Origin: a virus
Taxonomy: Duplodnaviria; Heunggongvirae; Uroviricota; Caudoviricetes
DNA length: 20,058 bases
Direction: 5' to 3' (one strand)
IMG/VR virus record: IMGVR_UViG_2617270985_000008
Shown: piece after piece, positions 917 to 20,058 of the stretch
Layout: each line of letters starts with the position of its first letter
Position numbering within the stretch: the stretch's first letter is position 1
Program-made: the position numbers and the translations under genes
Notes under the pieces: model-generated
The model's database searches: none
Seen by the model: only the letters and a program-made list of their open reading frames with translations
Told to the model about the DNA's origin: nothing

Positions 917-1003
917 GCCCGGATGGTGGAATCGGTAGACACAAGGGATTTAAAATCCCTCGGCGTTCGCGCTGTGCGGGTTCAAGTCCCGCTCCGGGTA
1001 CCA
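917..1003 (+). tRNA. leuZ: tRNA-Leu (anticodon TAA), long variable arm
   Basis: 87-nt sequence GCCCGGATGGTGGAATCGGTAGACACAAGGGATTTAAAATCCC...GTCCCGCTCCGGGTACCA; class II tRNA with extra arm. Confidence 0.95.
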
Positions 1004-1045
1004 TGGGAAAGATAAGAATAAAATCAAAGCAATAAGCAGTGTCGT

Positions 1046-1078
1046 GAAACCACCTTCGGGGGGGTTTTTTTTATTTTT
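1046..1078 (+). terminator. Rho-independent terminator of the tRNA operon
   Basis: GC-rich imperfect hairpin (AAACCACC TTCG GGGGGG) followed by a T8 run and further T tracts. Confidence 0.5.
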
Positions 1079-1899: not shown

Positions 1900-1925
1900 A
1901 ACCCGCAGTTCTTACGCTGCGGGTT
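1900..1925. terminator. Bidirectional hairpin terminator between the convergent secreted-protein and hok-like genes
   Basis: Perfect stem AACCCGCAG / CTGCGGGTT with 8-nt loop; A-run upstream on the + strand (T-run on the - strand) and T-rich downstream. Confidence 0.45.
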
Positions 1926-2011
1926 TGTTGTTCATGTCTGTGAGATAGGGTGCCACTTCAGCCAACCTTAGCAACCGATTGACGGGGGATTGCTCCCCCG
2001 TCGCGGTTTCC

Positions 2012-2152: not shown

Positions 2153-2342
2153 AGCGCTTGCTCCTTTGTTGGAGAGGCGCTAACCTATCACTTGCTTAAG
2201 GTAGATATGTTAGGGCCTCGGTTAAACAGAAATGTTTTCCGGGGCCTTTCCACATCCGGCCTTCGGGTATTCCTCCGACCATCAGCCGAAAGGCACCCGC
2301 GGGTAATCTATCGTTTTTTTGTTACTCCGGCAATTCTGCCTG

Positions 2343-2603: not shown

Positions 2604-2892
2604 AGCGACCTCCCTTAACGTGGTGCTGCCGCTATTCTAAGTTGTAATAGCTCAGACTCCAACTGACAGTTTGCGCAGCCAGAATACAATCAAACCTAGC
2701 GGTACGCTTTGTGCGAAGAGCGGAAGTTCGCAACTCCAACAACTTTGATAACCTCCGCATAAATGGAAATCGGTTGCTTACATAAGTTTATTGGCTGAGG
2801 TGCATATCGGGAAGCAAGCGGGCAGTGCCATCTTATCTGTTACAATCCCGAAATGATTGTTCAGCCCGCTTTTTCTAACAGCATGTAAACAT

Positions 2893-4032: not shown

Positions 4033-4431
4033 GAAATTAATGTTCTATAACAAAAACACTTATCGAAAATAGGTGTAATTTATCACTCCGGCAGCTAAAA
4101 GATCATCTGCCACATGCACGATAATAAATCTTCCTTGCGTCATCATCTCCCTCTGTTCTTAAATCAGGTGTTGCCTGTGTGCGGAGGATTCGCGAAGTAC
4201 AGTAGCCGAAATGCATGATCTTACCCATCAATGGTGAGCACGCGATAATAAGTGAGTCCCTAATTGACCACTCATGGCAATACAACTTCAACCAGCATTC
4301 ATGACCACTATCCGTGGATTAACTGTTACATAAGCAACACCTGCTCTAGGCACAAAGCGGGCTGCCAGATTGGGTCTGGCACTGTGCTGTGAGTGTGTCA
4401 GTTCTGGTTTGAGTCAATACATCTAATTTGC

Positions 4432-5532: not shown

Positions 5533-5689
5533 CTGTTCCCTCCCTGTGCGGCATGGTCGCATGTGCGTGCATAGGGGGTTACTGCTTTTTGTTGTCGCCG
5601 TGGCGGGAGAACGGCGCAGGGGTGAGATTACGCGCGTGGTGGGTGATGATTGTTGCCGAATCATTTAACGGATACAAGGGGCTGAAGCT

Positions 5690-6874
5690 ATGAGTGAAAC
5701 TCGTTTTCATGGTGCCCGTGTTACGGAAAGTACCGACCTGGTAACAGCGATTAATGATGTTGATTCCAGTGTTATCGGTATCGTGGCAACGGCGGATGAT
5801 GCGGACGCGGAGCTGTTCCCGCTGAACAAGCCCACACTGCTGACCCGCGTCAATGACGTGCTGGGAAAATGCGGGACTACGGGGACGCTTTATCGTGCGC
5901 TTAAGGCTATTGCAGACCAGGTGAGCACAAAAGTGATCGTCGTTCGCGTGGCTGAACACAAAGAAGAAGGCGGTAAGACGCAGGATCAACTGGTTATCGG
6001 TGGTTCTGAATCTGACGGCAGCTATACGGGGATGTATGCGCTGCTTGTTGCAGAGCAGGATGAAAGCATCGGATACCGTCCGCGTATTCTGGCCGCGCCG
6101 GAGCTGGACACGGAGGCGGTGACAAAATCCCTGTGCGTGATTGCGGGTAAACTGCGCGCGTTTGTGTATGCCTCATGTCATGACTGTAACACGATGGCTG
6201 AGGCAATTACCTACCGCCAGAAATTCAACGAACGTGAGGTGATGCTCTTATGGCCGGACTTCATCGCCTACAACCCGAAAAGTGGCAAAAACGAAACGTT
6301 CCCCGCGCCTGCCTATGCGTGCGGCCTTCGTGCGTACATTGACCATGAGCAGGGCTGGCACAAATCGCTGTCCAACGTTCCTGTTAAAAATGTGCTGGGG
6401 ATGTCCAGGCATGTTTTCTGGTCGTTGCAGGCCGAAGACAGTGATGCCAACAGCCTCAACAACAAAGAAATCACGACCATTATTCGTCGCAACGGGGTCC
6501 GCTTCTGGGGCAACCGCACACCGGAAACGAACGCCTACATCTTTGAGGTGTATACCCGAACCGCACAGGTGCTGGCTGATTCAATTGCGGAAGCGCAGTT
6601 TGAAACCATCGACAGTCCACTGACGCCTGCGAACGTGAAGGATGTTATCAGTGCCATCAGGGCAAAACTGGATTCGCTGGTTACTGCCGGGAAACTGATT
6701 GGCGCGGAGTGCTGGTATGACGTGGTGGATAACAGCACCACGGATTTACGTCAGGGGCGTGTGCGTATTCGCTACAAATATACGCCCGTTCCGCCACTGG
6801 AAGACATGGAGCTTTACCAGACGTTTACTGATGAATACTTTGAACCCGCATTTGCGGTGCTGGGAGGTGCCTGA
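5690..6874 (+). CDS. FI: Contractile tail sheath protein (P2 FI-like)
   Basis: 394 aa; motifs FPLNKP, LRAF.Y, QGWHKSLSNV, FWGNRT, YTPVPPLE are typical of P2 FI sheath. SD AAGGGG upstream. Confidence 0.9.
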   Translation: MSETRFHGARVTESTDLVTAINDVDSSVIGIVATADDADAELFPLNKPTLLTRVNDVLGKCGTTGTLYRALKAIADQVSTKVIVVRVAEHKEEGGKTQDQLVIGGSESDGSYTGMYALLVAEQDESIGYRPRILAAPELDTEAVTKSLCVIAGKLRAFVYASCHDCNTMAEAITYRQKFNEREVMLLWPDFIAYNPKSGKNETFPAPAYACGLRAYIDHEQGWHKSLSNVPVKNVLGMSRHVFWSLQAEDSDANSLNNKEITTIIRRNGVRFWGNRTPETNAYIFEVYTRTAQVLADSIAEAQFETIDSPLTPANVKDVISAIRAKLDSLVTAGKLIGAECWYDVVDNSTTDLRQGRVRIRYKYTPVPPLEDMELYQTFTDEYFEPAFAVLGGA

Positions 6875-7386
6875 TGGCTGTACCAAAACATCTTCGCTTT
6901 TTTACGCTGTTTGTGGATGGTGAAAACGAAGTGGGTAAGGTGACGTCCGTCACTCTGCCTAAGCTGACGCGCAAAACCGACAGCTACCGGGGTGGTGGCA
7001 TGATGGGTGCGGTAAGTATTGATCTCGGTCTGGACGACTCCGCGCTTGATGCGAGCTTTGTCATGGGGGGCGCAGTTCGTGAGCTGTTCCTTAAGTATGG
7101 CGGCACGATTGACGGCACGCTGCTGCGTTTTGCGGGTGAATATTACACCGATGCAGAAAGCGACCTGTATGAAGTCGAAATGCGCGGACGTGTGACGGAA
7201 ATTGATATGGGGGAAGCCAAACAGGGCGAAGCCACATCACACACTTACGCCATTAAAAACACCTACTACAAGCTGAGTGTTAACGATCGCCCGTTGTGGG
7301 AGATTGACCTGCTGAACTTCATTTACCGGAAGGACGGCAAGGACATTGTGCCCGATCGCATCCGTTCCGCGCTCGGGCTTGGCTGA
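6874..7386 (+). CDS. FII: Tail tube protein (P2 FII-like)
   Basis: 170 aa, start overlaps the FI stop (TGATG). Size, position after the sheath gene and sequence fit gpFII. Confidence 0.88.
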   Translation: MAVPKHLRFFTLFVDGENEVGKVTSVTLPKLTRKTDSYRGGGMMGAVSIDLGLDDSALDASFVMGGAVRELFLKYGGTIDGTLLRFAGEYYTDAESDLYEVEMRGRVTEIDMGEAKQGEATSHTYAIKNTYYKLSVNDRPLWEIDLLNFIYRKDGKDIVPDRIRSALGLG

Positions 7387-7440
7387 TAAGTAATATGCAG
7401 GCGGCGCAGTGCGTCGCCTCTGACTGAAAGGAGTTTCCTG

Positions 7441-7806
7441 ATGAAAGAGACGAAAAACATCGATACCGAAAACACGGTAGTTGCTGACACTGTGAAAGAA
7501 ACCAGTGAGCGTGGTGTAAAACTTACCCAACCAATTGAGCGAGGCGGCGAAAAAATCACGTATGTGGAGATCACCGGGGCTATTGAGCAGGCTGGATCTC
7601 TGCGAGATTTGTCGCTGTCTGATGTGCTGAATCTGAAAGCGGAATCCATGTTTACGCTGCTGTCACGCGTGACATCACCGCGACTGGATGAAGTGACGAT
7701 CAAAAAAATGGCATCCCGTGACTTTATTCAGTTATGTGTGGTTGCCGTAAATTTTTTGAGCGGTGCGGACTCTGGCGGGAAGAACGAACAGGCGACGGAA
7801 GCCTGA
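7441..7806 (+). CDS. E: Tail assembly chaperone gpE (zero-frame product)
   Basis: 121-aa ORF with AAGGAG SD, immediately upstream of the tape measure; contains slippery heptamer T_TTT_TTG at 7752-7758. Confidence 0.8.
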   Translation: MKETKNIDTENTVVADTVKETSERGVKLTQPIERGGEKITYVEITGAIEQAGSLRDLSLSDVLNLKAESMFTLLSRVTSPRLDEVTIKKMASRDFIQLCVVAVNFLSGADSGGKNEQATEA

Positions 7807-7970
7807 TCACGGTTGTGTGCTTTGAGCACATAGAAGACTTTGTGGCAGATATTGCCGTTATTTTTAACTGGTCGCCCGCCGAAATCTTCATGATGACGCC
7901 CGGCGAAGTGGTTAGCTGGCGTGAGCGGGCGGCACTTCGCAGCGGGAATGCAGACAATGAAGACTCTTGA
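7441..7970 (+). CDS. Tail assembly chaperone gpE+E' (programmed -1 frameshift fusion)
   Basis: The -1 frame stays open from the slippery site (7752-7758) to TGA at 7968-7970 (the track ORF 7734..7970 is this frame), giving the E+E' extension that ends where T begins, as in P2 (analogous to lambda G/GT). Confidence 0.65.
7752..7758 (+). other. Slippery heptanucleotide T_TTT_TTG for -1 ribosomal frameshift
   Basis: Sequence aaTTTTTTGag inside E, in the correct phase (X XXY YYZ) for the E frame. Confidence 0.65.
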
Positions 7971-10764
7971 TATCCGGGTCGCTTTCAGCGCCGTTGACAG
8001 GCTGACCCGGCCTGCCGAAAACGCCCGCCGCCTGATGGGGCAGTTTGGTGACTCCATCCAGCGAACGCAGGGGGCGATTAAAAATCTCGAGCGTCAGGCT
8101 CGTTCATTTGAGCGCGCCCGCGACGCTGTCAGTAAAGCGGATGCGGGTATCGTGAAAGCACGACGCCAGCTTAACGCCCTTAATCAGTTACAACGCACGG
8201 GTACAGTGCTCAGCGAAAAACAACAAAAGCTGATGCAGCAGTTAAGCACCCGGCTTGAACGCCTGAATGAATCGCGCACACGGGAAATTCAGAAAATGCG
8301 GGAGCTTGGCGGAGAGCTGAAACGCCACGGCATTTCCCTGACAGGCAGCGATAACACCATCCAGCAGGCCATCAGACGCACCGAACAGTACAACAACCAG
8401 CTTGAACGCGAACGGCAGGCGCTTGCGCGTGTAACGCGGGCGCGTGAGTGGTATTCGCGCGCGCAGGAAACCGCGGGAAAACTGAAAACAGGTGGTGCGC
8501 TGGCAATTGGTGCGGCAGCGGCGGGCGGCTATGCTGCCGGGCGTTTTTTGCAGCCCGCGATCGGGTTCGGCAAAGAGATGTCCCGCGTTCAGGCGCTGAC
8601 GCGAATCGACCAGAACAGCCCGCAGTTTAAGGCGCTGCGTGAGCAGGCGTTAAAACTTGGCTCTGAAACGCAGTTCACCGCAGGCGATGCCGCCAGTGGG
8701 CAGGCATTTCTTGCAATGGCAGGCTTCACACCGCAGGCCATTCAGGCTGCGCTTCCCGGAGTGCTGAGCATGGCAACGGCTGGCGGTATGGATCTCGGCG
8801 AGACGGCAGATATTGGCTCAAATATCCTGACGCAGTTCGGCCTTTCTGCTGACCAGATGGACCGGGTCGGTGACACACTCACCGCAGCGTTTACCCGTAC
8901 CAACACTGACCTTCGCGCACTGGGCGAAACCATGAAATATGCAGGTCCGGTGGCGGGTAAGCTGGGAATATCGCTGGAGCAGGCCGCAGCGATGGCTGGT
9001 GTGCTGGCGAATATGGGCATCAGAGGGAGTGATGCCGGGACGGCAATGCGTGCCAGCCTGGCTCGTCTGGCATCACCGCCAAAGGCGGCGGCAGAAGCTC
9101 TGAAAGAGCTGGGCGTGTCCGTCTCGGATGCCGGGGGTAAAATGCGCCCGATGGAGGATGTGCTGGCCGACCTTTATAAAGCCACCCGCAAATACGGGGA
9201 AGTTGACCGGGTATCGTTCTTTAAGGACATTGCCGGAGAAGAGGCTTTCACATCGTTTATGGCGCTCGTTGATGCAGTGGGTGACGGTTCCTTACCCAAA
9301 CTGAGAAAAGAACTTGAAGGCGCGCGCGGTGAGGCTGAACGCACAGCAAAGGTTATGGCCAACAACCTTGACGGCGATCTGAAATCACTCGGCAGTGCAT
9401 GGGAAGGGTTGCGCATCCGCATTGCAGATCTGATTGACGGTCCGCTGCGTTCTGTCACGCAGTGGCTCACGCGGGTGGTATCAAGGGTGACGGCGCTGGC
9501 GCAGGCCCATCCGGCACTGACGCGCCAGCTACTGATAGCAGGCGGTGCGTTGCTGGCAATGACTGCAACGGTTGGCTCGTTGTCGCTGGCTATTGGTGTG
9601 CTTGCTGGTCCGCTGGCAAAACTGCGTCTTGGTTTTTCTCTCCTGACCGGATCAATGAATGCTGTCAGGGTCCTGCCAGCACTATGGGGAATGGTGACGG
9701 GTTCCGTTTCTTTACTGGGAGGCGCTATCGGGGCGCTGTTCAGTCCGGTTGGTCTTATCGTGGCTGCGCTTGCCGGAGCTGCCGTCCTTATCTGGAAATA
9801 CTGGGATCCCATCAGGGCATTTTTTGCCGGGGTGTTCAGCGGGATTATGGAAAGGCTGAACCCGTTGCGTGAAACCTTTGAACGGTTTGGCCCTGTTTTT
9901 GACGCAATCGGAAGCGGGATCAGCCAGGTGTTTAACTGGTTTAAATCGCTGCTGTCACCGATGGAGTCCAGCAAGGAAACGCTGGATAAATGTACCAGTG
10001 CTGGCGAGATATTCGGTAACGTTCTTGGCGGTGCGTTACAACTTGTTCTGACACCTGCAAAAATGCTACTGGATACGCTGGCGTGGATACTTGAAAAACT
10101 TGGCGTCCTTCCGGATGAAGCGGAAAGGGCGCGCAAGAAAATCGAAGACGCACAGCGTGCGGCCATTCTTCAGGATAAGGTTGCCTTACTTCAGGGGGAC
10201 CTGGCGAAAATCAATCCGCCGAAGCCTGTGGAAAATGGCAATGGCACCGGAGGTGATAAACCCAAAGACAACAAACCGCTCACAGACAGCAATACCGGGA
10301 CGCTACGCAGACTCAGCAAAATTGCTGATAACACAGGTAAGCTGGTTGATGAGACGAAAAAACGCATTGGCCCTGGCGATATTGTCTTTAAGAACCTGCC
10401 CCGCGCACTTGCTGTTCGTGGGGAGTGGCAGGAGCGGAAGATTGCGCAGGTCAGTAAGCCTGCCCCCGCAATTAATATCACACCCGTAGTCCCGGCTCCG
10501 CTGCCTCCGGCGCTGGTCCCTGTTGTTGCGGCCAGCTCCCGCCCGGTGGCGGAGGCCATACGATCGCCAGTGGCATCAGTTCCTGCAGCTTCCCGTAATC
10601 GGGAGCCTGCTGTCTCCAGATTTGGCGGTGAAATTCATGTTCATCTGCATAACGTTGTTACGCAGAATCCCCGCGAACTGGCGAAACTGGTCGGTGAAAT
10701 GGTCAGGGCAGAAATGGAACGGCGCGCCCGTGCCGGGCGTGGCAGTTTTTACGATAAAGATTGA
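7921..10764 (+). CDS. T: Tail tape measure protein (P2 gpT-like)
   Basis: 947-aa ORF, coiled-coil-rich N-terminal half, hydrophobic Gly/Ala-rich central segments, Pro-rich C-terminus; located between E/E' and U. Track start is GTG 7921; the true start is more likely ATG 7948 or 7957. Confidence 0.85.
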   Translation: MSGRHFAAGMQTMKTLDIRVAFSAVDRLTRPAENARRLMGQFGDSIQRTQGAIKNLERQARSFERARDAVSKADAGIVKARRQLNALNQLQRTGTVLSEKQQKLMQQLSTRLERLNESRTREIQKMRELGGELKRHGISLTGSDNTIQQAIRRTEQYNNQLERERQALARVTRAREWYSRAQETAGKLKTGGALAIGAAAAGGYAAGRFLQPAIGFGKEMSRVQALTRIDQNSPQFKALREQALKLGSETQFTAGDAASGQAFLAMAGFTPQAIQAALPGVLSMATAGGMDLGETADIGSNILTQFGLSADQMDRVGDTLTAAFTRTNTDLRALGETMKYAGPVAGKLGISLEQAAAMAGVLANMGIRGSDAGTAMRASLARLASPPKAAAEALKELGVSVSDAGGKMRPMEDVLADLYKATRKYGEVDRVSFFKDIAGEEAFTSFMALVDAVGDGSLPKLRKELEGARGEAERTAKVMANNLDGDLKSLGSAWEGLRIRIADLIDGPLRSVTQWLTRVVSRVTALAQAHPALTRQLLIAGGALLAMTATVGSLSLAIGVLAGPLAKLRLGFSLLTGSMNAVRVLPALWGMVTGSVSLLGGAIGALFSPVGLIVAALAGAAVLIWKYWDPIRAFFAGVFSGIMERLNPLRETFERFGPVFDAIGSGISQVFNWFKSLLSPMESSKETLDKCTSAGEIFGNVLGGALQLVLTPAKMLLDTLAWILEKLGVLPDEAERARKKIEDAQRAAILQDKVALLQGDLAKINPPKPVENGNGTGGDKPKDNKPLTDSNTGTLRRLSKIADNTGKLVDETKKRIGPGDIVFKNLPRALAVRGEWQERKIAQVSKPAPAINITPVVPAPLPPALVPVVAASSRPVAEAIRSPVASVPAASRNREPAVSRFGGEIHVHLHNVVTQNPRELAKLVGEMVRAEMERRARAGRGSFYDKD

Positions 10765-10770
10765 GGAGTC

Positions 10771-11265
10771 ATGGCCATGATGATGATCTATGGCATGTTT
10801 GTTTTTGAGCTGCGCACGCTGCCGCATCAGCAGTTACAGCAAAACAAAAGCTGGCGGCATGTGAAAAATGAACGCGTTAACCGTTCAGCAAGCTGGCAGT
10901 ATATCGGTGCAGGTGATGATCGCATCGTTCTTTCTGGTGTGCTTTATCCTGAAATTACAGGTGGCGAAGTGTCGCTGTCTCTGCTGACCACGCAGGCGTA
11001 TACAGGACGGCCCTGGCCTCTGATTGATGGCGTCGGGCAGATTTACGGCATGTATGTCCTGACCGAAACGAATACGACCCGCTCCGAGTTTGATCGCTAC
11101 GGTAAGGCGAAAAAGATAGAATTTTCACTGACTCTTGAACGCTGTGATGAGGATTTGCGGGAGCGCCTGCAATCCTCATCGTTCAGCGATATGTTGTCCG
11201 GCTTCAAAGATAAGGTGACATCATCCCTTAATAGCGCGACCAGCTCAGTTAAGGGGCTGCTCTGA
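10771..11265 (+). CDS. U: Tail protein gpU-like
   Basis: 164 aa; TLPHQQLQQNKSWRH…LSGVLYPEITGGEVSL…WPLIDG…RSEFDRYGKAKKIEFSLTLE resembles P2 gpU. Several ATGs at 10771-10785, so the exact start is uncertain. Confidence 0.8.
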   Translation: MAMMMIYGMFVFELRTLPHQQLQQNKSWRHVKNERVNRSASWQYIGAGDDRIVLSGVLYPEITGGEVSLSLLTTQAYTGRPWPLIDGVGQIYGMYVLTETNTTRSEFDRYGKAKKIEFSLTLERCDEDLRERLQSSSFSDMLSGFKDKVTSSLNSATSSVKGLL

Positions 11266-11341
11266 TTTAACGTATGTCGCCAATTTCCTGATGAAGGTGA
11301 CTGGCGACTTGCTGTTGTATGTCCTTCTCAGAAAATTGTTT

Positions 11342-11370
11342 TTGAATAACAAACAACAGGATTTTATAAT
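11342..11370 (+). promoter_or_regulatory. Near-consensus sigma70 promoter (TTGAAT, 17-nt spacer, TATAAT) driving the acetyltransferase
   Basis: TTGAAT at 11342-11347 and TATAAT at 11365-11370; a second TATAAT at 11381-11386. About 50 nt upstream of the AAGGAG SD. Confidence 0.5.
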
Positions 11371-11421
11371 CTCTTAACCTTATAATATGTGTGGTCTGAA
11401 ATAATAATTAAGGAGATTATC

Positions 11422-11994
11422 GTGCTGTCTTACTTAATGGCAATTCACTTTGTTTTATTTGGGGACTCTACTAATTTAAAAAACTTCTGGAAATATGAAG
11501 TAATTCGGCGGAAACGTATGGATATCTGGAGGCTTTTAAGAGAGAAAAAACAGCGTAACCGGAATTTCCTTTTCTGGTGGCGGTTGGCTAACGAAATGTA
11601 TATTAATGGTAATAAATTACATAAGAAAGCAGCCAAAAAGTTAAACAGTAAAATAATTAACAAATTTGGTTGTGAAATTGGATTGGGCGCAAATATTGGA
11701 AAAGGGTTAACAATTCCCCATCATGCTGGAATTGTTGTTCATTTTGCTGTTGATGCTGGTGAAAATCTGGTGTTACGACAGAATACTACCATTGGACAGA
11801 TAGATGGTGACATGCCTGGTTCAAGAGTAAAAATTGGTAGTAACGTTGATATCGGAGCTAATTGTTGCATCATTGGATTATCACGTAAAATTGGGGATAA
11901 TGTAAAAATAGGTGCAATGTCTTTTATAAATAAAGATATACCATCGAACTGCACATATATAACTAAAAAGAGCGGTGTTGTATTGTATAAATAG
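11422..11994 (+). CDS. Hexapeptide-repeat (left-handed beta-helix) acetyltransferase, serine acetyltransferase/WcaB-like
   Basis: AT-rich ORF; C-terminal half has hexapeptide repeats (IGANIGKGLTIPHHAGIVV…IGSNVDIGANCCIIG…IGDNVKIGAMSFI). Start set at GTG 11422 with AAGGAG 6 nt upstream; the track ORF begins at 11389 without an RBS. Confidence 0.8.
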   Translation: MLSYLMAIHFVLFGDSTNLKNFWKYEVIRRKRMDIWRLLREKKQRNRNFLFWWRLANEMYINGNKLHKKAAKKLNSKIINKFGCEIGLGANIGKGLTIPHHAGIVVHFAVDAGENLVLRQNTTIGQIDGDMPGSRVKIGSNVDIGANCCIIGLSRKIGDNVKIGAMSFINKDIPSNCTYITKKSGVVLYK

Positions 11995-12002
11995 AGTACA
12001 TA

Positions 12003-12030
12003 AAGCCATCTATATTTCAATCGATGGCTT
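12003..12030. terminator. Bidirectional hairpin terminator between the acetyltransferase and the tail-fibre assembly gene
   Basis: 8-bp perfect stem AAGCCATC / GATGGCTT with 12-nt loop, flanked by AAA on the left and TTTTCTCTTT on the right. Confidence 0.5.
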
Positions 12031-12037
12031 TTTCTCT

Positions 12038-12616
12038 TTATTGTGGGGCGACTGGCCACTCAACATCCGCTGCTACCGCTGTATTAACACGATTCAACAA
12101 TACCCGGTATGTCTTCCATGCAGCCAGTAACGATGCCTCTTCCTCCGTTGCAATATCCAAATCTACGGCATCCTGAAGTGGCGCAATATGCTCGCTGGCT
12201 ACCTGCATCAGGCTGTTTTTTGTTTCTTCCGCCTCCCTTATCCGAAACAGTTTTTCTGCTTCTGCATCTTTCACCCAGGATGTGCCGTTCCACTTCTGAT
12301 ACTCTCCATACGGCGACAACCAGGTAACATTTTCCGGTAATGGACCGAGTTCAGAAATAAATAACGAGTCCCCTGATGCCACGTCATAAACCGTTTTACC
12401 CCGATGGTCTTCAACGAGATGCCACGATGCCTCATCACTGTTGAAAACGGCCACGAAGCCAGCCGGAATATCTGGCGGGGCAATATCGGTACTGTTTGCA
12501 GGCAGACCTGTATGAGGTGGAATGTATGCATCACCTTCACCAATAAACTCATTGGTTCCGGTCAGTAGATTATAAATTTTTATGGTCCGTGAGTGTTCAC
12601 TCATTCTGAATGTCAT
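12038..12616 (-). CDS. G: Tail fibre assembly protein (P2 gpG / Tfa family)
   Basis: 192 aa directly downstream of the tail-fibre gene; C-terminus (…[35 protein letters not shown]) is the conserved Tfa signature. Alternative start ATG 12604. Confidence 0.8.
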
Positions 12617-12653
12617 TATGCAAGCCTCACAATATAGTTAAATGCGATGTTTT

Positions 12654-13976
12654 TTACGGTGTTTTCTTCGTTAACTCCAGACCTGTGGCCCCCTGCATAT
12701 TATCTGTCAGGGCGGTCAGCCGACCTTTTGAAGCCAGATTAACTGACGATACTGCTGTCCCATCTGACGGTAACGCCCCGATCTCTGATGCTGTTGGCTT
12801 ATTCCTGGAGTTATAGTCCCTTCGCCAGCCAGGAGCATAAGCATCACCATGATTAATATAAGTAAATTGAGCATTAGGGATGCCTTCACCGCTGGATGTA
12901 CTCGGTGTGGTAATGCGTATGGTCATTGCGCCGCGGGTGCCAATAACTTCCACAACAGCACCTGCAAGACAAATACTTCCGCAACCTGTATCTGTAATGA
13001 CCTTATTATTTGCATAAGCCCATGAGCCTTTGCACATCCAGTAAGGATGGTTAAATGCCCCCTGACTCTCTAGCCAAAAAATCAACTGCGCAGTTGTCCA
13101 TGCTTCACTATCTCCACCAATATTCAGCTCTGCACTATATGCACGGCAGGCACCGATATTTTTCGTAAAGGTGTCTTTATCAGAGATATCCTCACCATTC
13201 TTAGCTTTCTGCAGACGTTTTTCAGCATTGTCATAGGCAGCTTTTACTGCATTTGATGTTGCCGCCAGCGTTTCAGATGTACTGTTGGTTGCACTACTAA
13301 GCTGGACAAGGCCTTTTCGCGCTGTTGTGGCATCCTGCGCTGTATATTTTCCGTTAGCAAGATCATACGCGACCTTAACCGCTTTCGGCGTTGCAGCCAG
13401 CGTTTCAGAATCGCTGTTAGTGGCGCTACTGAGTTGAACAAAGCCTTTTGCGGTCAGCGAGGCATCCGGGTGACATCGTGACTGTTCATGCTCTTTCAGT
13501 TTGTTATCCACGTAATCCACTGTGGCCATCACCATGGTGTTATCCACGGTAAGCGCCACAGTGGCAGTGCTGGATACGGTCAGAATGGTGCGAAATGTTT
13601 GTGCACGTCCGGACCCTTCGGCAACGGCTGGCTTGTAACTTTCGGCAGTATTGCCCACCGCGATTAAATCGCCGTGCTCATCAAACACACCAATTTCCCG
13701 GATCCAGAATCCGCCCGTTTCTGGAGGAATAACCAGCTCCGCAATAATGCGGTTCTGATGTGTTGCGTCCAGGATGACGCGATTAACAGTGTGTCGCCAC
13801 ACCTCATGCACCAGACGGGTCTGCTTACTGTCTGGTGTGGGCAACGCGCCGCCACCGTCGCCCACGGCCATATGAGTCAGGCGGACAGGCTTACCATCTG
13901 GCGCGGCTGCCTGAGCTAATTTTTTGGCACCTGTATCGGTGATAACGGTTTTAAATTTTCGTGTTGTGGTACTCAT
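12654..13976 (-). CDS. H: Tail fibre protein (P2 gpH-like)
   Basis: 440 aa; conserved gpH N-terminal domain (…VRLTHMAVGDGGG…RLVHEVWRH…AELVIPPETGGFWIREIG…ESYKP…) and duplicated QLSSATNS.SETLAAT motif; divergent C-terminal domain. Confidence 0.88.
   Translation of the reverse strand: MSTTTRKFKTVITDTGAKKLAQAAAPDGKPVRLTHMAVGDGGGALPTPDSKQTRLVHEVWRHTVNRVILDATHQNRIIAELVIPPETGGFWIREIGVFDEHGDLIAVGNTAESYKPAVAEGSGRAQTFRTILTVSSTATVALTVDNTMVMATVDYVDNKLKEHEQSRCHPDASLTAKGFVQLSSATNSDSETLAATPKAVKVAYDLANGKYTAQDATTARKGLVQLSSATNSTSETLAATSNAVKAAYDNAEKRLQKAKNGEDISDKDTFTKNIGACRAYSAELNIGGDSEAWTTAQLIFWLESQGAFNHPYWMCKGSWAYANNKVITDTGCGSICLAGAVVEVIGTRGAMTIRITTPSTSSGEGIPNAQFTYINHGDAYAPGWRRDYNSRNKPTASEIGALPSDGTAVSSVNLASKGRLTALTDNMQGATGLELTKKTP
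13230..13445 (-). repeat. Intragenic tandem repeat in the tail-fibre gene (two copies, 132-nt period)
   Basis: Peptide repeats GFVQLSSATNSDSETLAATPKAVKVAYD (aa 178-205) and GLVQLSSATNSTSETLAATSNAVKAAYD (aa 222-249); the DNA copies are visibly similar. Confidence 0.6.
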
Positions 13977-13978
13977 GC

Positions 13979-14509
13979 TTAATCGTCCGGATAAATGGTA
14001 ATAACTTCACCGTCATGAGTTGCCGCCGCTGCAAAAATATCCCCCGGAATTTCCTGAATGATATTCAGCCCTGTCATGTGGCGGCTGACCGGACGGGCAT
14101 CAGCAATCAACCGCTCCATTTCCAGATACATTTCCTCCGTCACGCCACTGTCCAGTGTGCCGACTTCAACGGTAAATGTTCCCGGTTCTCCGCCGAACTC
14201 CCACCACTCAGACACGCGAATGAGGTATCCCAGCGGCTCAATGGCCCTGCGCAGTGCGCTGATGGTCCCTTTGTGTCGGTGTATCAGCCATGCATCACGA
14301 ATCACCTGTCGTTTTGTCTCTTCCGGCCAGTTGCGATCCCAGCGGTCAACGGAAAATGCCCAGGCGAGATAAGGCAGCAGGTGCACCGGGCAGGTGTCCG
14401 GCGACCACAGCGTGTTGAGGTCTACCGGGATGTCTGTAATGCGCGTTCCGACAGCTTCGGCACAACGCATGAAACTGCTGGCTGATGGTGGTAACAGTGA
14501 ATTACTCAT
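13979..14509 (-). CDS. I: Baseplate protein gpI-like
   Basis: 176 aa from ATG 14509 (MSNSLLPP…), overlapping the J stop in an ATGAGTAA arrangement; motifs WSPDTCP..LLPYLAWAFSVDRWD…GYLI…EWWE…PGTF…EMERLIADA…SRH match gpI. The track ORF starts 11 codons earlier. Confidence 0.85.
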   Translation of the reverse strand: MSNSLLPPSASSFMRCAEAVGTRITDIPVDLNTLWSPDTCPVHLLPYLAWAFSVDRWDRNWPEETKRQVIRDAWLIHRHKGTISALRRAIEPLGYLIRVSEWWEFGGEPGTFTVEVGTLDSGVTEEMYLEMERLIADARPVSRHMTGLNIIQEIPGDIFAAAATHDGEVITIYPDD

Positions 14510-15257
14510 TGCGCCCACCTTCGCTGATGGTGAACGACTCACAGCGCGCCGCCTGTATGTCGCTGATGGCCATATTCTGTGTGGGTTCGATTATCTCCAC
14601 GCGTTGCACACCGTGCACATGCAGTGCGGCAGCAATGGCGGACAACGCCACGTCCTGACCGATAAGCCCCTGCTCAGCCAGCCACTTCCTGAACGACGAT
14701 TCAGCCGCCGCCAGAATAGGTTCGGATTCCGGGCCGGGGTAAAAGTACAGTTTTGCATTCAGCCGCCATGTCACGATTCTGGCGCTCTGTACCGTCAGGC
14801 GGTCGGCCACCGGGCGGGTATCCTCTGCATTCAGAACGGCGCGAACGGTATTAAGCAACGCCTCCGTTGCTGTGCCGTCGCCTTCAGTGGACAGGATGGA
14901 AACCGTCACATTTGCCGGAGACGGACTGATAGCCCGCGCATCACGCACCAGACCGCTGGCGCTGCGGGCAAAATACTCGTATGCACCTGACGGGCCAGCA
15001 ACACTCAGGCCATCGTACGCCCGCTGCGCCCGCAGTCTCAGCGAGGTGTCACTTTCCATCACTGCGTCGGTGGTATCCGTTGCCGGAGTGATGGTCAGGC
15101 GCTTTGTGTTCATATTGCCCGCGAGGTTGTCCAGGTCTGTCCCGGCGCTGTGGCTTAACATGCAGGCGCGTGCCCCCTCATTGACCCGCTGGCGTAACGA
15201 GCGTTTCACGGTTATGGAGTTCTGATGAGCAGAAAAAATAAAAAAGTGCGCATGAGT
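14502..15257 (-). pseudogene. J: Baseplate assembly protein gpJ, 5'-truncated remnant
   Basis: Translation (…RQRVNEGARA…MESDTSLRLRAQRAYDGLSVAG…RPVADRLTVQSA…YFYPGPESEPI…HVHGVQRVE…) matches roughly the C-terminal 220 aa of gpJ. Homology stops near 15210-15250, where the opposite-strand Q start abuts; about 85 N-terminal codons are missing. Confidence 0.75.
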
Positions 15258-15959
15258 TCACGCATTGATCTCGCTGATGCGCTCAGGAAAGAATCATCGC
15301 TCAGTGCATTCACATTTGATGGTCCTTATCGCCTGACCGGGCATGACCTGCTGGACAATATGTACTGTGCTGATAACGGGCGGTGGTATGAAACCCCGGT
15401 GGACTGGTACGGTCTGGCAAGAGCCGCCCGGCAAACGTCCTGGCATCAGTCTGCGCTTTACTTTAAGCGCAATGTATTGCTCGGTTGCTACATCCCGCAC
15501 CCGCTGCTTTCCCGGCAGGATTTCTCGGCGCTGGCGCTGGACTGGTTTGTGTTCGGTAACGCATTCCTTGAGCTTCGAAGCAATATGCTCGGCGAACCGC
15601 TTAAATTACGGCACGCCCTGGCGAAATACATGCGACGCGGAAGCGATCTTGAATCATGGTGGTATGTGCAGGATGGCAAGGATGCGTTTCAGTTTCGCCC
15701 AGGCAAAGTGTGCCACCTGATGAATCCGGACATTAACCAGGAAATCTACGGCATGCCGGAATATCTCGGCGCATTACTCTCGGCCAGCCTGTCTCATTCG
15801 GCGGACATGTTCAGAAAACTGTATTACGACAACGGATCCCACGCCGGGTGCATCATCTACATCGGTGCAGCGCAGGTAAACCGCGAAAGCATGGACTCCC
15901 TGAAAGAAACGCTACAGGGTGCGCGTGGTGGTGGTGCGTTTCACGTCCTCTGGAGGTGA
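15225..15959 (+). pseudogene. Q: Portal protein gpQ, 3'-truncated remnant
   Basis: 244-aa ORF with portal motifs (…NGRWYE…YFKRNVL…IPHPLLS.QDF…FGNAFLE…DINQEIYGMPEYL…YYDNGSHAG…) corresponding to roughly the N-terminal 70% of a P2-type portal; ends in unrelated sequence. Confidence 0.75.
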
Positions 15960-16076
15960 AACGAACGACAGGAAAATGCTTAATTGCCATTACGCCTCCT
16001 TGGTGTGTGTGAATACCTCTGCGAATGCAGATTGTGTTCACATTTTTTTATTTAAGCTGGGGTTTTATTTATGCGG

Positions 16077-16190
16077 TTATTCGCCAGTGAAAAAGCGTTC
16101 AATCTTTTTTACTGAATTAATAATTCGCATAATACCAATTGCACAAACTACCGAAATAATAAGAACAATCCAGGATATAAATATACTCAT
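16077..16190 (-). CDS. Putative 37-aa hydrophobic membrane peptide
   Basis: Not in the ORF track. ATG overlaps the stop of the upstream 80-aa gene (ATGA coupling). Translation MSIFISWIVLIISVVCAIGIMRIINSVKKIERFFTGE has one TM helix and a basic C-terminus. Confidence 0.35.
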   Translation of the reverse strand: MSIFISWIVLIISVVCAIGIMRIINSVKKIERFFTGE

Positions 16191-16429
16191 GCGATATTTC
16201 CCAGTTTGTACGGCTCAATATGCTCCCCGCATTCTGCGGCGCAGATAAGCTCAGAAAGTTCATTAAGTGCATCCAGATCGTCAGCGTAAAAAGCTACGTC
16301 ATACAGACTCCGGATAGCCCTGGTCAATGAGTCACGGGCTGCACGTTCTGAATGAGCGCCGGATGCGCTTAAACGAAAATAAAAACGCTCAAGTGCTTTG
16401 TTGATGAGAGTTTTATATTCTTTATCCAT
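16187..16429 (-). CDS. Hypothetical prophage early-region protein (80 aa)
   Basis: Tightly packed in the leftward early operon; no recognisable motif. Confidence 0.5.
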   Translation of the reverse strand: MDKEYKTLINKALERFYFRLSASGAHSERAARDSLTRAIRSLYDVAFYADDLDALNELSELICAAECGEHIEPYKLGNIA

Positions 16430-16440
16430 CGCAACACCCT

Positions 16441-16719
16441 TTAATCTGCTTTCTGAATTTCAGCTTCTGAATCCATGCAGATAATCTCGATATAGGGTTC
16501 ATCGCCATTAACCTGACGAGATTTTTCGGCTTCGCTAATTATTTCGCGAATGATCTGGTACGGAAGCTCTACAGTCAGGCGTGTACCGTTCAGATAAACG
16601 TAGGTAGCTGCGTTTTTTTCAGATGGAACTACTCCGTCAATAGCTGATGCGCGTAATAACAGTTCACCGCGAAAATCAATAAAGCGGATAAATACACCTT
16701 GTGCATGGTCTTTAGTCAT
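16441..16719 (-). CDS. Hypothetical prophage early-region protein (92 aa)
   Basis: ORF 11 nt downstream of the previous gene on the same strand; acidic C-terminus; function unknown. Confidence 0.5.
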   Translation of the reverse strand: MTKDHAQGVFIRFIDFRGELLLRASAIDGVVPSEKNAATYVYLNGTRLTVELPYQIIREIISEAEKSRQVNGDEPYIEIICMDSEAEIQKAD

Positions 16720-16729
16720 AAAGCACCTG

Positions 16730-17080
16730 TTATAAAGCAGCCTGTTTAATAAAACTTTGCCCGCGAAGCAGACGATCGACTGTGCGTAGTGCTTCGTACA
16801 ATGTGAAATCCTGCCCGAACTGATTATCGCCGCTGCTTAATGCAAAAATGCGGTTTCCGGTAAACGGATTGTGTGGGCATCTGTGAACCACGATTCCAGC
16901 TTTCTCAATCAGCCAGGTGTGTTCGCCGATTTGTTTTACAGCGTGCCCATCTGGTGTTGCGTGCGTCTCGTTCAGGTTATAGCGGCTGTTACTACGTGAT
17001 GCACTGGTAGCGACGTGGTGTACATGGCGTTCTACGCCATTACGAAATTTGGAGTATGGATTATTAGTGTTTTTTTTCAT
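16730..17080 (-). CDS. Hypothetical prophage early-region protein (116 aa)
   Basis: ORF in operon arrangement; His/Cys-containing; function unknown. Confidence 0.5.
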   Translation of the reverse strand: MKKNTNNPYSKFRNGVERHVHHVATSASRSNSRYNLNETHATPDGHAVKQIGEHTWLIEKAGIVVHRCPHNPFTGNRIFALSSGDNQFGQDFTLYEALRTVDRLLRGQSFIKQAAL

Positions 17081-17101
17081 GATGATGCTCTGTTCATTGT
17101 T

Positions 17102-17305
17102 TTAGCTGTTAGCCAAAGCGTCTTTTAACATCGCCACAAGGTTTACTTCAGGCTTTTCCATTTTGGCGCGTTTGGGGCGGATAATAATTCGACCGTCAGC
17201 CAACATCTTTTTGCATGTATTAAGAGGGATACCTGTTATCTCTGCATATTTCTGCAGGGATACATAGGGGGCATTCACATTGATATTGATGGTTATACCT
17301 GACAT
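17102..17305 (-). CDS. Cox/Apl-like small DNA-binding protein (putative excisionase/regulator)
   Basis: 67 aa; the segment PYVSLQKYAEITGIPLNTCKKMLADGRI resembles the HTH region of P2 Cox (PYQEFAKLIGKSTGAVRRMIDKGKLP); position in the early operon fits. Confidence 0.55.
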   Translation of the reverse strand: MSGITININVNAPYVSLQKYAEITGIPLNTCKKMLADGRIIIRPKRAKMEKPEVNLVAMLKDALANS

Positions 17306-17321
17306 CCCACTAGCCTCCTGA

Positions 17322-17528
17322 TCAGGAAGATTTGTTTTGTTCTTTCTGGGTTAGCTCTAGGCCGCGAAGGAAGATCATGCGCGCCATGTTAGAGGATGAG
17401 CGTTGTTCTTTAGCTGCCATTTCATCAATGACGGCTCGCTCCTCGAGGGACAGCCGAAGTGCCAGTCTTGGACCTGTGGCGGTGTTACGCGGAATGCGTG
17501 ATCTGGTATCGTGAAGAACTTGTTTCAT
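17322..17528 (-). CDS. Ribbon-helix-helix (Arc/CopG-like) DNA-binding protein, first gene of the leftward early operon
   Basis: 68 aa; RLALRLSLEERAVIDEMAAKEQRSSSNMARMIFLRGLE fits a beta-strand/helix/helix RHH fold; divergent from the XRE repressor across a 75-bp control region. Confidence 0.5.
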   Translation of the reverse strand: MKQVLHDTRSRIPRNTATGPRLALRLSLEERAVIDEMAAKEQRSSSNMARMIFLRGLELTQKEQNKSS

Positions 17529-17570
17529 AGTGGTATATTGTGATCATCTAATAGCTCGTGAAATCATTTT

Positions 17571-17588
17571 GGTATCAAAAAAGATACC
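17571..17588. promoter_or_regulatory. Candidate operator: perfect inverted repeat GGTATC-AAAAAA-GATACC in the divergent control region
   Basis: Lies in the 75-bp interval between the RHH and repressor start codons; a further GGTATA half-site at 17532-17537 and a TGATCA palindrome at 17541-17546. Confidence 0.4.
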
Positions 17589-17603
17589 TGTAAAGGTTTT
17601 TGT

Positions 17604-18008
17604 ATGAAAAATGATATTGGTCAGCGGTTGCGTGAGGAAAGGGAAAGATTGGGACTTAGTCAAGTTGCCATGAGCGACATTGGTGGAGTCAAAAAGCTAA
17701 CTCAGCTTAGATATGAGAAAGGAGATAGCTTTCCTGATGCTGCGTATTTGGCAGCGCTGTCTCGTTTTGGCCTTGATGTTCAGTATGTTGTGTTGGGAAT
17801 TCACTCACCTGAAACTTATAACGATGATGAGCAGGAGTTGATTACTCGCTTTCGAGCAGCTTCGTTAGATGTGAAAAACGCGGTGATCGGGGCTTTAAAA
17901 GGTGCGATCAGTGAAAAGGAAACTCAGCCATCAGGACGTGAGTTAAATATTTCTGGTGGTAATAACCGTATCGCTGGTCGTGACTATAACGAAACTAAGG
18001 GTAGGTGA
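17604..18008 (+). CDS. XRE-family helix-turn-helix repressor (P2 C / CI-like immunity repressor)
   Basis: 134 aa; N-terminal IGQRLREERERLGLSQVAMSD…YEKG is a canonical HTH_XRE; first gene of the operon ending in int, as in P2 (C-int). The C-terminus carries the GGNNRIAGRDYNE motif. Confidence 0.75.
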   Translation: MKNDIGQRLREERERLGLSQVAMSDIGGVKKLTQLRYEKGDSFPDAAYLAALSRFGLDVQYVVLGIHSPETYNDDEQELITRFRAASLDVKNAVIGALKGAISEKETQPSGRELNISGGNNRIAGRDYNETKGR

Positions 18009-18023
18009 TAGTAGGGAGGTGAC

Positions 18024-18674
18024 ATGGCCGTCAACTCAAACGGTTCAAACAATCGCGTTGCTGGGCGTGATTTTCACGAAAAGAAAATTCAGATAGAGCG
18101 ATATGATGGTTCTCATACCGTCAATATCGCAATCCCTTCGAATAATGATGATGACGATCGCCCTTTGCTTAAGGCTCAGCGTAAGGAGCTAAATAGCTTG
18201 GTTGCTGCTATTGCAGAAGCTAGCAATACTGAAGCGTTTATTATTTGGCAAAAAGTACATGCGGAGATTGGTGTAGCTGGTATTGATGATATGACAGTAA
18301 ATCAATATAAAACAGCGGAGAGTTTTCTGCATGCAATGCTTGAGCGATGTAAAGATCATGATGCCTGTAAGACTCTTGTAAGTTTATTACTACGTAACAG
18401 TGAAGACTGTGGACTTCGACAAAAACTTCTGCGGTATTGCCATATCAATTTCGGTACAGGACGTTTAAACGATCTTACTCGTTCTCAGTTACAGTCTGCA
18501 TTGTCGTGGTTAGAGCAACAATCGGCATCAAGTCACACAGAGAGTTCGGCCTTACCAGAAGTTCGACTTCGTGCTTCAGAATTAATCCGACTTTATCCAA
18601 AAGAAATAATATTCTTTATCTGCGTAGGGGTTTTGGTAGGCGGTGCCATTTCTAGGGTGTTTTTTAATTTGTAA
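18024..18674 (+). CDS. Hypothetical tail-anchored membrane protein (216 aa) sharing an N-terminal motif with the repressor C-terminus
   Basis: Strong SD GGGAGG 4 nt before the ATG; N-terminus NGSNNRVAGRDFHE repeats the repressor C-terminal motif; C-terminal TM helix IIFFICVGVLVGGAI. Same reading frame as the repressor, separated by TGA-TAG-TAG. Confidence 0.6.
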   Translation: MAVNSNGSNNRVAGRDFHEKKIQIERYDGSHTVNIAIPSNNDDDDRPLLKAQRKELNSLVAAIAEASNTEAFIIWQKVHAEIGVAGIDDMTVNQYKTAESFLHAMLERCKDHDACKTLVSLLLRNSEDCGLRQKLLRYCHINFGTGRLNDLTRSQLQSALSWLEQQSASSHTESSALPEVRLRASELIRLYPKEIIFFICVGVLVGGAISRVFFNL

Positions 18675-18703
18675 TCTTACTTGAGCTAAATTGAGGTAAT
18701 GAT

Positions 18704-19051
18704 ATGAAAGTAAAAAAGGTTCAACTATTAGTTACTTTTTTATCTATGTTTTCTTTTTCCGCCGTCGCAATGCCTTTTAAAACTATTGAACGTGAGAGTT
18801 TCAATGGGGTATGGCCATTTAATACTGATGAGGTTCAATTACAGTGTCTTGATGGTAATCCTTATGTGATGAATTTTGACGATAATAAGTTATATGCGCT
18901 TACAGGTTTAGCTCGAATAAAAGGTAAAACATTTGGTGCGTTACCGTTAGATAACAATAATCCATTTTGGCTAGATAATGATGCCGCCCCAGGGTTAAAA
19001 AAGAGTCTGGGGGATGTCACTAAGGCTGCATTTGATTTATGTGATAAGTAA
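18704..19051 (+). CDS. Hypothetical secreted/periplasmic protein (115 aa, signal peptide)
   Basis: MKVKKVQLLVTFLSMFSFSAVA signal peptide; mature protein with two Cys (possible disulfide); SD GAGG 7 nt upstream; AT-rich. Confidence 0.6.
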   Translation: MKVKKVQLLVTFLSMFSFSAVAMPFKTIERESFNGVWPFNTDEVQLQCLDGNPYVMNFDDNKLYALTGLARIKGKTFGALPLDNNNPFWLDNDAAPGLKKSLGDVTKAAFDLCDK

Positions 19052-19056
19052 CTAAA

Positions 19057-20058
19057 ATGTCGGTTCGTAAGATTCCATCAGGTAAATGGCTTTGCGAATG
19101 TTATCCCTACGGGGCATCGGGAAAACGCATTCGTAAACAGTTTGCGACAAAAAGTGAGGCGCTCTCTTATGAGCGCCGTTTAATGAATAGTAGAGTTGGA
19201 GACGAGTTTCAAGATGGTTCTGGTCCTCGTCTTTCTGAGTTGATTGCTCGTTGGTTTGAGATGTACGGTAAAACCTTGTCCTCTGGTGCAGAGCGCAAAG
19301 TCAAACTTGAGGCGATTTGTTCCAGGCTGGGGGATCCATTTGCTTCTCAGTTTGACAAAAATATGTTTGCTACTTATCGGGAAAGAAGGCTATCAGGAGA
19401 ATGGAATCCCAAGGGGAAGAAAAAACTTAGTGAAGCAACCGTTAATCGCGAGCAGTCATATCTACATGCTGTTTTTGCCGAACTGAAGCGCCTTGGGGAG
19501 TGGTCTGGTGAAAACCCCCTGACTGGTATTCGCAAGTTTCGTGAGGAAGAAAAGGAACTGGCGTTTCTGTATGTAGATGAGATTGAACGCCTTCTGATTG
19601 CGTGTGATGAGTCACGGAATAAAGATTTGGGGGTTGTTGTCCGTATTGGGCTTGCGACTGGTGCTCGGTGGAGTGAAGCTGAAGGATTAAAGCAATCTCA
19701 AGTACTGCCCGGTCGAATCACATTTGTTAAAACTAAAGGAAAGAAGAACCGCACTGTACCGATTTCACCTCAATTGCAGGCTATGCTTCCTCAAAAACGA
19801 GGAGCGCTATTTTCACCATGTTATGAGGCTTTTGACGCTGCAATTAAGAGAGCGAAGATCGAGCTTCCTGATGGGCAATTAACTCATGTGCTACGTCACA
19901 CGTTTGCCAGTCATTTTATGATGCGGGGCGGAAATATTCTTGTGTTGCAAAAAATACTGGGGCATAGCGATATAAAAATGACTATGCGTTATGCGCATTT
20001 TGCTCCAGGTCATTTAGAGGCTGCTGTTGAATTGAACCCTTTTGACAATAGAGGGTAA
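19057..20058 (+). CDS. int: Tyrosine recombinase, P2-type phage integrase
   Basis: 333 aa; matches to P2 Int throughout (GKRIRKQF.TKSEA…, RLSEL, GLATGARW.EA, ITFVKTKGKKNRTVPIS, HVLRHTFASHFMMRGGNILVLQKILGHSDIKMTMRYAHFAP). The window ends at its TAA. Confidence 0.9.
   Translation: MSVRKIPSGKWLCECYPYGASGKRIRKQFATKSEALSYERRLMNSRVGDEFQDGSGPRLSELIARWFEMYGKTLSSGAERKVKLEAICSRLGDPFASQFDKNMFATYRERRLSGEWNPKGKKKLSEATVNREQSYLHAVFAELKRLGEWSGENPLTGIRKFREEEKELAFLYVDEIERLLIACDESRNKDLGVVVRIGLATGARWSEAEGLKQSQVLPGRITFVKTKGKKNRTVPISPQLQAMLPQKRGALFSPCYEAFDAAIKRAKIELPDGQLTHVLRHTFASHFMMRGGNILVLQKILGHSDIKMTMRYAHFAPGHLEAAVELNPFDNRG

Follow-up and report, generated by a model that had tools for sequence, protein, structure and literature searches.

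The 20,058-nt stretch of DNA analysed here (hereafter the window) very probably carries a defective P88-type prophage (genus Xuanwuvirus, P2 family Peduoviridae), inserted at leuZ and scarred by recent internal deletions. One of the scars lies where a fragment of the baseplate gene J faces the portal gene Q. An original prediction, made from the sequence alone, had placed a deletion junction at 15205-15260 in the window, and a junction is indeed present within about 10 nt of this interval. Judged by alignment to an intact relative, this J-Q junction is a fusion between J and the end of the terminase gene P (J'-'P), in which J at codon 67/68 is joined to the last 27-30 nt of P.

Identity and integration site of the prophage

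Homologues of the P2 late structural genes are found in the window in P2-type order (D, FI, FII, E, T, U, G, H, I, J, P, Q), and P2-family prophages that match the window as a whole occur in many E. coli genomes. Pfam matches include Phage_GPD, Baseplate_J, Phage_portal and Phage_tail_fib; the listing for L005, a WGS-style contig record that represents a longer copy of the window's contig, includes Phage_sheath, Phage_tube, GpE, GpU and Tail_P2_I. Among named phages, Escherichia phage 520873 and P88 (Xuanwuvirus, Peduoviridae) come closest, with approximately 96% nucleotide identity. P88 is 96.1% identical across 60% of the window, the uncovered part corresponding mainly to the immunity/integrase region and to accessory genes. 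The P2 layout on which the original prediction was built is correct at the level of the family, the element itself being P88-like (Xuanwuvirus) and not P2 proper. Assignment to the genus rests on the alignable part of the sequence, the whole-genome genus criterion being inapplicable to a remnant.

The FI-FII-E-T-U block runs opposite to G-H-I-J and D. As the same arrangement is present in P88 and in the intact siblings described below, it is a property of the phage type; damage in this remnant was considered as its cause and rejected, functional P88 and the intact siblings having an identical layout.

The prophage is integrated at the tRNA-Leu(UAA) gene leuZ, which in this E. coli-type chromosome lies between pgsA and yecA. 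The left flank contains pgsA and, downstream of it, a tRNA-Gly/Cys/Leu cluster whose final gene, tRNA-Leu, occupies positions 917-1003; yecA and tyrP form the right flank, which was read in L005. A second copy of the 122-nt repeat that marks the left end of the remnant (Table 1) is located at 14941-15062 of L005, just past int and before yecA, the two copies being identical at 120 of 122 positions. The remnant is therefore integrated in the chromosome and bounded by duplicated attachment sequence.

An intact sibling defines three deletions

A sibling carrying the full prophage at the same locus was sought and found in E. coli 2013C-4538 (NZ_CP027582.1, about 848.5-885 kb; coordinates below refer to our copy, L004). 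The prophage of this strain is ~38 kb long and has the full gene set; comparison with it confirmed both of the deletions originally proposed. A second intact sibling, in the O157:H- strain 493/89, is 96% identical, and related EHEC strains have intact P88-like prophages at leuZ as well. As shown in Table 1, the window aligns to L004 in four collinear blocks with 99.9-100% identity. Across the ~16.7 kb of prophage compared, the two sequences differ at only 3 bases, which allowed every breakpoint to be placed to the base. Retained coding sequences show zero amino-acid differences from those of L004. Missing relative to L004 are 10,816, 6,531 and 772 bp.

Table 1. Features of the prophage remnant, its deletion junctions and its alignment to the intact L004 prophage.
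Feature	Position in window	Strand	Description	Basis
Block 1	1-12673		L004 4930-17602; 99.87% identity	
Left attachment-site repeat	949..1070	+	3' half of tRNA-Leu(UAA) leuZ plus 67 nt; left end of prophage remnant	
H'	12654..13976	-	Tail fibre; 434 of 710 native codons plus 6 out-of-frame codons	blastn vs L004
Block 2	12668-15210		L004 18368-20910; 99.88% identity	
H junction	12673/12674		772-bp frameshifting deletion; spanning sequence TTTCTTCGTTAACTCCAGACC	
Gene I	13979..14509	-	Baseplate gene, intact, 176 aa	Zero amino-acid differences from L004 gpI; Pfam Tail_P2_I in L005
J'	14502..15198	-	3' part of baseplate J, codons 68-298 of 298	BLASTP vs L004 J; Pfam Baseplate_J
Block 3	15196-15941		L004 31713-32458; 100% identity	
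Junction 1	15196-15198		Crossover trinucleotide AAC common to both parents; 10,816 bp deleted (L004 20900-31715); spanning sequence CCGCTGGCGTAACGAGCGTTTCACGG	Three-way alignment of window, L004 J side and L004 P side
'P	15199..15225	+	Terminase large subunit, last 8 codons plus stop (ERFTVMEF, stop)	100% identity to L004 31716-31742
Q'	15225..15959	+	Portal; native ATG start, 239 of 348 native codons plus 5 foreign codons (HVLWR) and stop	BLASTP vs L004 Q
Block 4	15940-17862		L004 38988-40910; 99.9% identity	
Junction 2	15940-15941		Shared dinucleotide TT; 6,531 bp deleted (L004 32459-38989); spanning sequence GGTGGTGCGTTTCACGTCCTCTGG	blastn vs L004
Cut early-operon ORF	15942..15990	-	First 17 codons of a 67-aa ORF, cut by deletion 2	Maps to L004 38990-39038 in CDS 38835-39038
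Early-operon genes	16077..17305	-	37-aa ORF, DUF4754, 92-aa ORF, DUF4761, 67-aa Cox-position DNA-binding protein; all intact	Zero amino-acid differences from L004
Immunity/integration block	17604..20058	+	C-type repressor (134 aa), Flk_N-like (216 aa), YebY/DUF2511-like (115 aa), integrase (333 aa)	Sibling annotation; L005 Pfam listing

Breakpoints were placed to the base by blastn against L004 combined with three-way alignments. For the homology at the junctions, the null distribution consisted of 20,000 random position pairs in the same prophage, 0.5% of which reach the score of junction 1.

The J-Q junction contains the end of the terminase gene

The J fragment had been estimated to lack about 85 N-terminal codons. 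This figure proved too high: J' matches residues 68-298 of L004 J at 231 of 231 positions (BLASTP), so that 67 N-terminal codons have been lost. J' has no native start, and its PV promoter would be gone. Alignment to the P2 proteins, by which the truncation of J and Q was tested, likewise gave partial matches for both: J' aligns to gpJ residues 69-302 with 56% identity (BLASTP) and Q' aligns to gpQ with 47% identity up to about residue 241 of 344.

On the other side of the crossover lies 'P, whose counterpart in L004 forms the end of the annotated terminase CDS (29991-31742). The stop codon of P and the start codon of Q share one base, and Q follows P as it does in the intact phage. The J reading frame had been described as running into the opposite-strand portal start within a few tens of bp. 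The two genes do stand in close head-to-head arrangement, the ORFs at 14502-15209 (-) and 15225-15959 (+) diverging from each other at a distance of 15 nt; however, the P remnant intervenes between them, and the right end of deletion 1 is not at the start of the portal gene but inside P, 27-30 nt before its stop codon.

According to the annotation of L004, deletion 1 took out the first 67 codons of J, both W and V, tail completion genes of the S and R types, an accessory DUF6645 gene, the lysis cassette, X, L, M, N and O, and the first 575 codons of P. The order of these genes is the same in P88 and P2. The list that had been drawn up from a P2 layout (W, V, S, R, lysis genes, X, L, M, N, O and P, about 10 kb) is thus confirmed by L004; the deletion is as large as 10.8 kb because the parent also carries the 1.9-kb DUF6645 gene. 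Going by the P2 map, the divergent late promoters between O and P, as well as the promoter of the V operon, would have disappeared with the same segment.

In the three-way alignment at junction 1, the J side reads ...GCTGGCGTAAC/AGCATTTCACGAAAC, the P side ...GGAGAAAAC/GAGCGTTTCACGGTTATGG and the window ...GCTGGCGTAACGAGCGTTTCACGGTTATGG. The crossover falls within a 15-nt imperfect direct homology, AAC(G)AGC(A/G)TTTCACG, which reaches position 15210. The AAC portion is exact and the whole shows 13 matches out of 15 with a 1-nt gap; past AAC, a 1-nt shift brings the parents into agreement at 10 of 11 positions. This homology exceeds chance, with P = 0.005 for its local score and P = 0.056 for its exact length.

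Deletion 2 truncates the portal gene

The portal ORF had been predicted to end at 15959 after about 244 of about 340 residues. While the ORF length was read correctly, 239 residues of a native 348 are present before the HVLWR tail: Q' is identical to L004 Q over residues 1-239 (239/239, BLASTP), with the stop codon at 15957-15959. In Pfam, Q' matches Phage_portal over profile positions 45-188 of 321 with 30.4 bits, under the curated cut-off of 39.1 bits; an intact relative matches positions 46-294 with 66 bits.

Deletion 2 joins Q to the 17th codon of an early-operon ORF on the opposite strand. Annotated in L004 within the missing segment are Q codons 240-348, the intergenic region downstream of Q, an ead/Ea22-like gene, a parM-like pair, the replication endonuclease gene A and a few small ORFs. 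A second deletion extending from the 3' part of the portal gene through cos and the replication genes to the early operon had been proposed, and these data bear it out, including the loss of gene A, for all but cos. The latter lies downstream of Q on the P2 map and was presumably lost with the same segment, judging solely by synteny; a search with the P2 cos 19-mer gave no match within 3 mismatches in either L004 or the window.

A third deletion and the genes retained

The 772-bp deletion in H did not figure in the earlier reading. H' lacks the Collar domain (residues 511-558 of intact H; Pfam) and the C-terminal part of the protein, which in P88 is the receptor-recognition region (PMC5285337). 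Among the genes retained intact (Table 1), the early operon gives a Pfam match to DUF4761, and the integrase and its counterpart in strain 493/89 differ by 1 residue.

Occurrence of the junctions in other assemblies

The same sequence occurs in three other assemblies, namely the NCBI draft GCA_000704285.1, in which the 14.8 kb compared are 100% identical to the window, and the Logan assemblies SRR1186477 and ERR13731125, the latter providing a 905-bp contig that spans both junctions 1 and 2. The 244-aa truncated portal, with identical sequence, is present on 6 contigs in the public collection. When each of the three junctions was searched for in 5,426 complete RefSeq E. coli genomes, none was found, nor did these genomes contain any single-deletion intermediate; an exact 32-mer across junction 1 had no match in a set with one genome per bacterial species. 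The absence of the junctions from complete genomes and species representatives indicates that the allele is rare.

Origin of the deletions

At the junctions, the retained parental sequences abut directly with zero inserted bases, and the retained blocks are collinear and in their native orientation, as expected for three simple deletions relative to a near-identical parent. Nothing IS-like was found between 15100 and 16100, and Rfam and tRNA scans of the entire window were empty in this interval. From the 3 base differences over ~16.7 kb and the unchanged retained proteins, the deletions are, on sequence criteria, very recent. They were probably generated by illegitimate recombination. The position of junction 1 within a 15-nt imperfect direct homology points to the short-homology type of this process: the 10.8-kb deletion would have been guided by imperfect pairing around AAC, through either replication slippage or RecA-independent joining. 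The overlaps at junction 2 and at the H junction, 2 nt each, do not exceed chance (P = 0.16 in both cases), and the 6.5-kb and 772-bp deletions would have arisen essentially without homology. Microhomology, which had been suggested as a feature to look for, thus exceeds chance at junction 1 and not at junction 2, and the homology scores support applying the term "microhomology-mediated" to junction 1 only.

These conclusions were weighed against three other readings. The least credible of all those considered here is that short-read mis-joins created the junctions and that the true prophage is intact. The source does appear to be a draft short-read assembly, given the WGS-style record of L005, and a homopolymer-like cluster of substitutions at 1061-1106 suggests local problems of sequence quality. 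However, the separately assembled ERR13731125 contig covers both junctions and SRR1186477 has the same structure; moreover, overlaps of 2-3 nt are far too short to mislead an assembler, and each junction joins sequences that occur once within the prophage. It is also highly improbable that the missing blocks were moved elsewhere by inversion or transposition, with phage functions persisting. The span examined comprised the window and, in L005, a further 0.7 kb on the right, which leaves room for this reading, but all four retained blocks agree with the intact prophage in order and orientation, neither junction has an IS element or an inverted repeat, and the locus runs unbroken from the left att repeat to int in the window, and from there to yecA and tyrP in L005. 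More serious, though still doubtful, is the idea that one complex event, such as replication-based template switching or breakage repair, removed both large blocks, and perhaps the H segment as well, leaving a 0.75-kb 'P-Q' island. None of the three junctions was found alone in the 5,426 complete genomes, the 3 base differences leave little time for three separate events, and each Q'-bearing assembly that spans junctions 1 and 2 has both. Against this, missing intermediates are weak evidence in a lineage as rare as this one (6 contigs on record), the island that was left is collinear with the intact phage and natively oriented, which is what simple deletions would give, and other strains carry single deletions of such kind.

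Consequences for the element

All head, packaging, lysis and replication genes, together with most of the baseplate genes, are gone from the remnant; compared to L004, it lacks capsid, scaffold, terminase, lysis, V, W, R, S, X, L and A. From this gene content, the element would be unable to make heads or baseplates, and hence particles, to package DNA, to lyse the host, to replicate or to act as a helper. The repressor, the Cox-position protein, the integrase and both att repeats have been kept, so that immunity, and perhaps excision, may persist. A role as a tailocin or domesticated tail cluster was considered and rejected, since the remnant has lost V, W, R, S, X and the lysis genes and has only truncated forms of J and H.

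J', 'P and Q' are most likely promoterless pseudogene fragments with no expected function. The PP promoter of Q' would be among the sequences deleted, and no promoter-like site was found near Q'. A promoter and terminator scan of the 14800-17700 interval yielded nothing above shuffled expectation, the sole promoter-like site being at the early/immunity region. The early operon (- strand, from 17305 down to 15942) points through Q', in antisense, toward J'-I-H'-G, and read-through into these sequences upon derepression is conceivable.

The deletions might have been kept because they shed lethal functions (lysis, replication) while useful cargo was retained; we consider such selected domestication unlikely. 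The cargo named in this connection comprises immunity, hok/gef, acetyltransferase-like and YecA-like genes and tail parts. The retained genes are intact and identical to those of a functional sibling, and large internal deletions of head, lysis and part of the baseplate genes recur elsewhere, both of which would fit this reading. However, recency alone (3 mismatches) explains the identity of the retained genes, a tail module without V and W and with J and H truncated cannot be functional, the lineage is rare and confined to a few near-clonal isolates, and random deletion with loss of lethal function needs no specific benefit. Even less probable in our view is that Q', as a dominant-negative portal subunit, or the whole remnant has been retained to interfere with incoming P88/P2-type phages alongside repressor immunity. 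If this were true, the recurrence of deletions anchored in J or W would reflect selection and not chance decay.

The phenomenon itself, recent prophage decay by internal deletion, is already known, and the element is not of a new kind. In practical terms, J', 'P, Q' and H' should be annotated as pseudogene remains within a defective P88-like prophage, and counts of inducible phages or P4-type helpers should exclude the element. It provides a base-resolved case of very recent prophage inactivation with a near-identical intact parent, and could add a data point on how prophages lose lethal functions, with one junction in short imperfect homology and two with essentially none. It could also serve as a lineage marker for the few carrier isolates. 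Beyond annotation and strain typing, the value of these observations is small.

Comparison with related prophages

The 2013C-4538 prophage shares its site, gene order and sequence with the window, and the proteins common to both are identical; the window differs in lacking the three segments. P88 (NC_026014), an inducible, plaque-forming phage (PMC5285337), also matches the gene order of the window, including the FI-FII-E-T-U block that is inverted relative to P2. Unlike the remnant, P88 is complete; an invertible tail-fibre segment with a DNA invertase stands in place of the acetyltransferase-like gene of this prophage, and the immunity and integrase region differs from that of the window. 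P2 (NC_001895) is more remote. Its late genes are homologous, Q follows P, the PQ unit faces away from the O operon, and V-W-J-I-H-G are in the same order as in the P88-like type. In contrast, similarity at the DNA level is only distant, the FI-U block is co-oriented with G-H-I-J and D, unlike in the window, and the lysis, accessory and early genes differ.

Defective P2-family prophages provide a further term of comparison. Sp13 of E. coli O157:H7 Sakai, a textbook case, is a defective P2-like prophage that deletion has left without most of the morphogenetic genes, and which still replicates and excises upon induction (PMC2669165). The remnant in the window resembles Sp13 by its gene loss; Sp13 replicates, whereas the remnant lacks the replication gene A. 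P2-family remnants of independent origin are found in two other E. coli strains. EC130 (L001) carries an independent J-to-P deletion, in which a J fragment stands head to head with a P fragment, at the equivalent of L004 20430-30390. IAL7250 (L002) has a deletion extending from W to the early region, equivalent to L004 21297-38834, in a prophage whose chromosomal site, by ppa and ytfQ, differs from that in the window. The breakpoints of these two remnants differ from those in the window, and their sequences are only 91-98% identical. As both deletions have one end in J or W, decay of this sort is recurrent.

Additional deletion in the tail-fibre gene and a chimeric early ORF

Comparison with the intact sibling, a near-identical full prophage at leuZ in E. 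coli 2013C-4538, revealed that the tail-fibre gene H has a separate deletion. The loss of 772 bp shifts the reading frame, leaving 434 of the 710 residues and eliminating the Collar domain together with the C-terminal region. The junction was found in none of 5,426 complete E. coli genomes. In the neighbouring tail-fibre assembly gene G (12038-12616), a match to Rfam family IS009 was detected; the family is probably a candidate-RNA model derived from prophage tail-fibre assembly sequence.

As a result of deletion 2, the 6,531-bp loss that joins the truncated portal gene Q' to the early operon, codons 1-17 of an early ORF originally 67 aa long now read on into antisense Q', forming a chimeric ORF of roughly 45 aa (within 15853-17305, minus strand). 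The entire early operon is now directed through antisense Q' toward J'-I-H'-G, where J' and H' are the truncated baseplate and tail-fibre genes. Five accessory ("moron"-type) genes are kept intact.

Features of the defective prophage and junctions of related remnants (window coordinates unless a locus is named)
Feature	Position	Strand	Remarks
hok/gef toxin gene	2012-2152	-	accessory
379-aa protein, annotated YecA family	2893-4032	-	accessory; SEC-C motif at N terminus; adjoins ogr
Hexapeptide-repeat gene, annotated serine O-acetyltransferase	11422-11994	+	accessory; between U and G
Rfam IS009 (RF02111) match	12075-12273	-	192 bits; within G
H, truncated tail-fibre gene	12654-13976		deletion junction 12673/12674
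Flk_N-like protein	18024-18674	+	accessory; between repressor and integrase
YebY/DUF2511-like protein	18704-19051	+	accessory; between repressor and integrase
E. coli EC130 remnant	L001 6203-7776		J joined to P
E. coli IAL7250 remnant	L002 7103-7523		W joined to early operon

Of the 18 positions at which the window and the intact sibling disagree, 11 are packed into 46 nt (1061-1106) just within the left prophage end. Every one of them extends a run of G or T residues (e.g., GGGTGGT to GGGGGGG), and one breaks the copy of the leuZ terminator hairpin. The cluster has the appearance of errors from sequencing or assembly rather than of evolutionary change.

Comparison with related prophages and phages

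Independent P2-family remnants are present in two further strains, EC130 and IAL7250, where one boundary of each large deletion again falls within the J/W baseplate genes; the endpoints are not those of the window. In E. coli O157:H- 493/89, the sibling prophage is otherwise complete, but an IS30 element interrupts tail gene D (L003 6432-8764, the 493/89 locus). Thus, this "intact" prophage is probably defective as well, by a route other than that seen in the window.

The FI-FII-E-T-U tail block (5690-11265, plus strand) is opposed to D (4432-5532) and to G-H-I-J (12038-15198), both on the minus strand, an arrangement not found in P2. Since the functional phage P88 and the intact siblings have this same orientation, the opposed block is a trait of the P88-type phage group.
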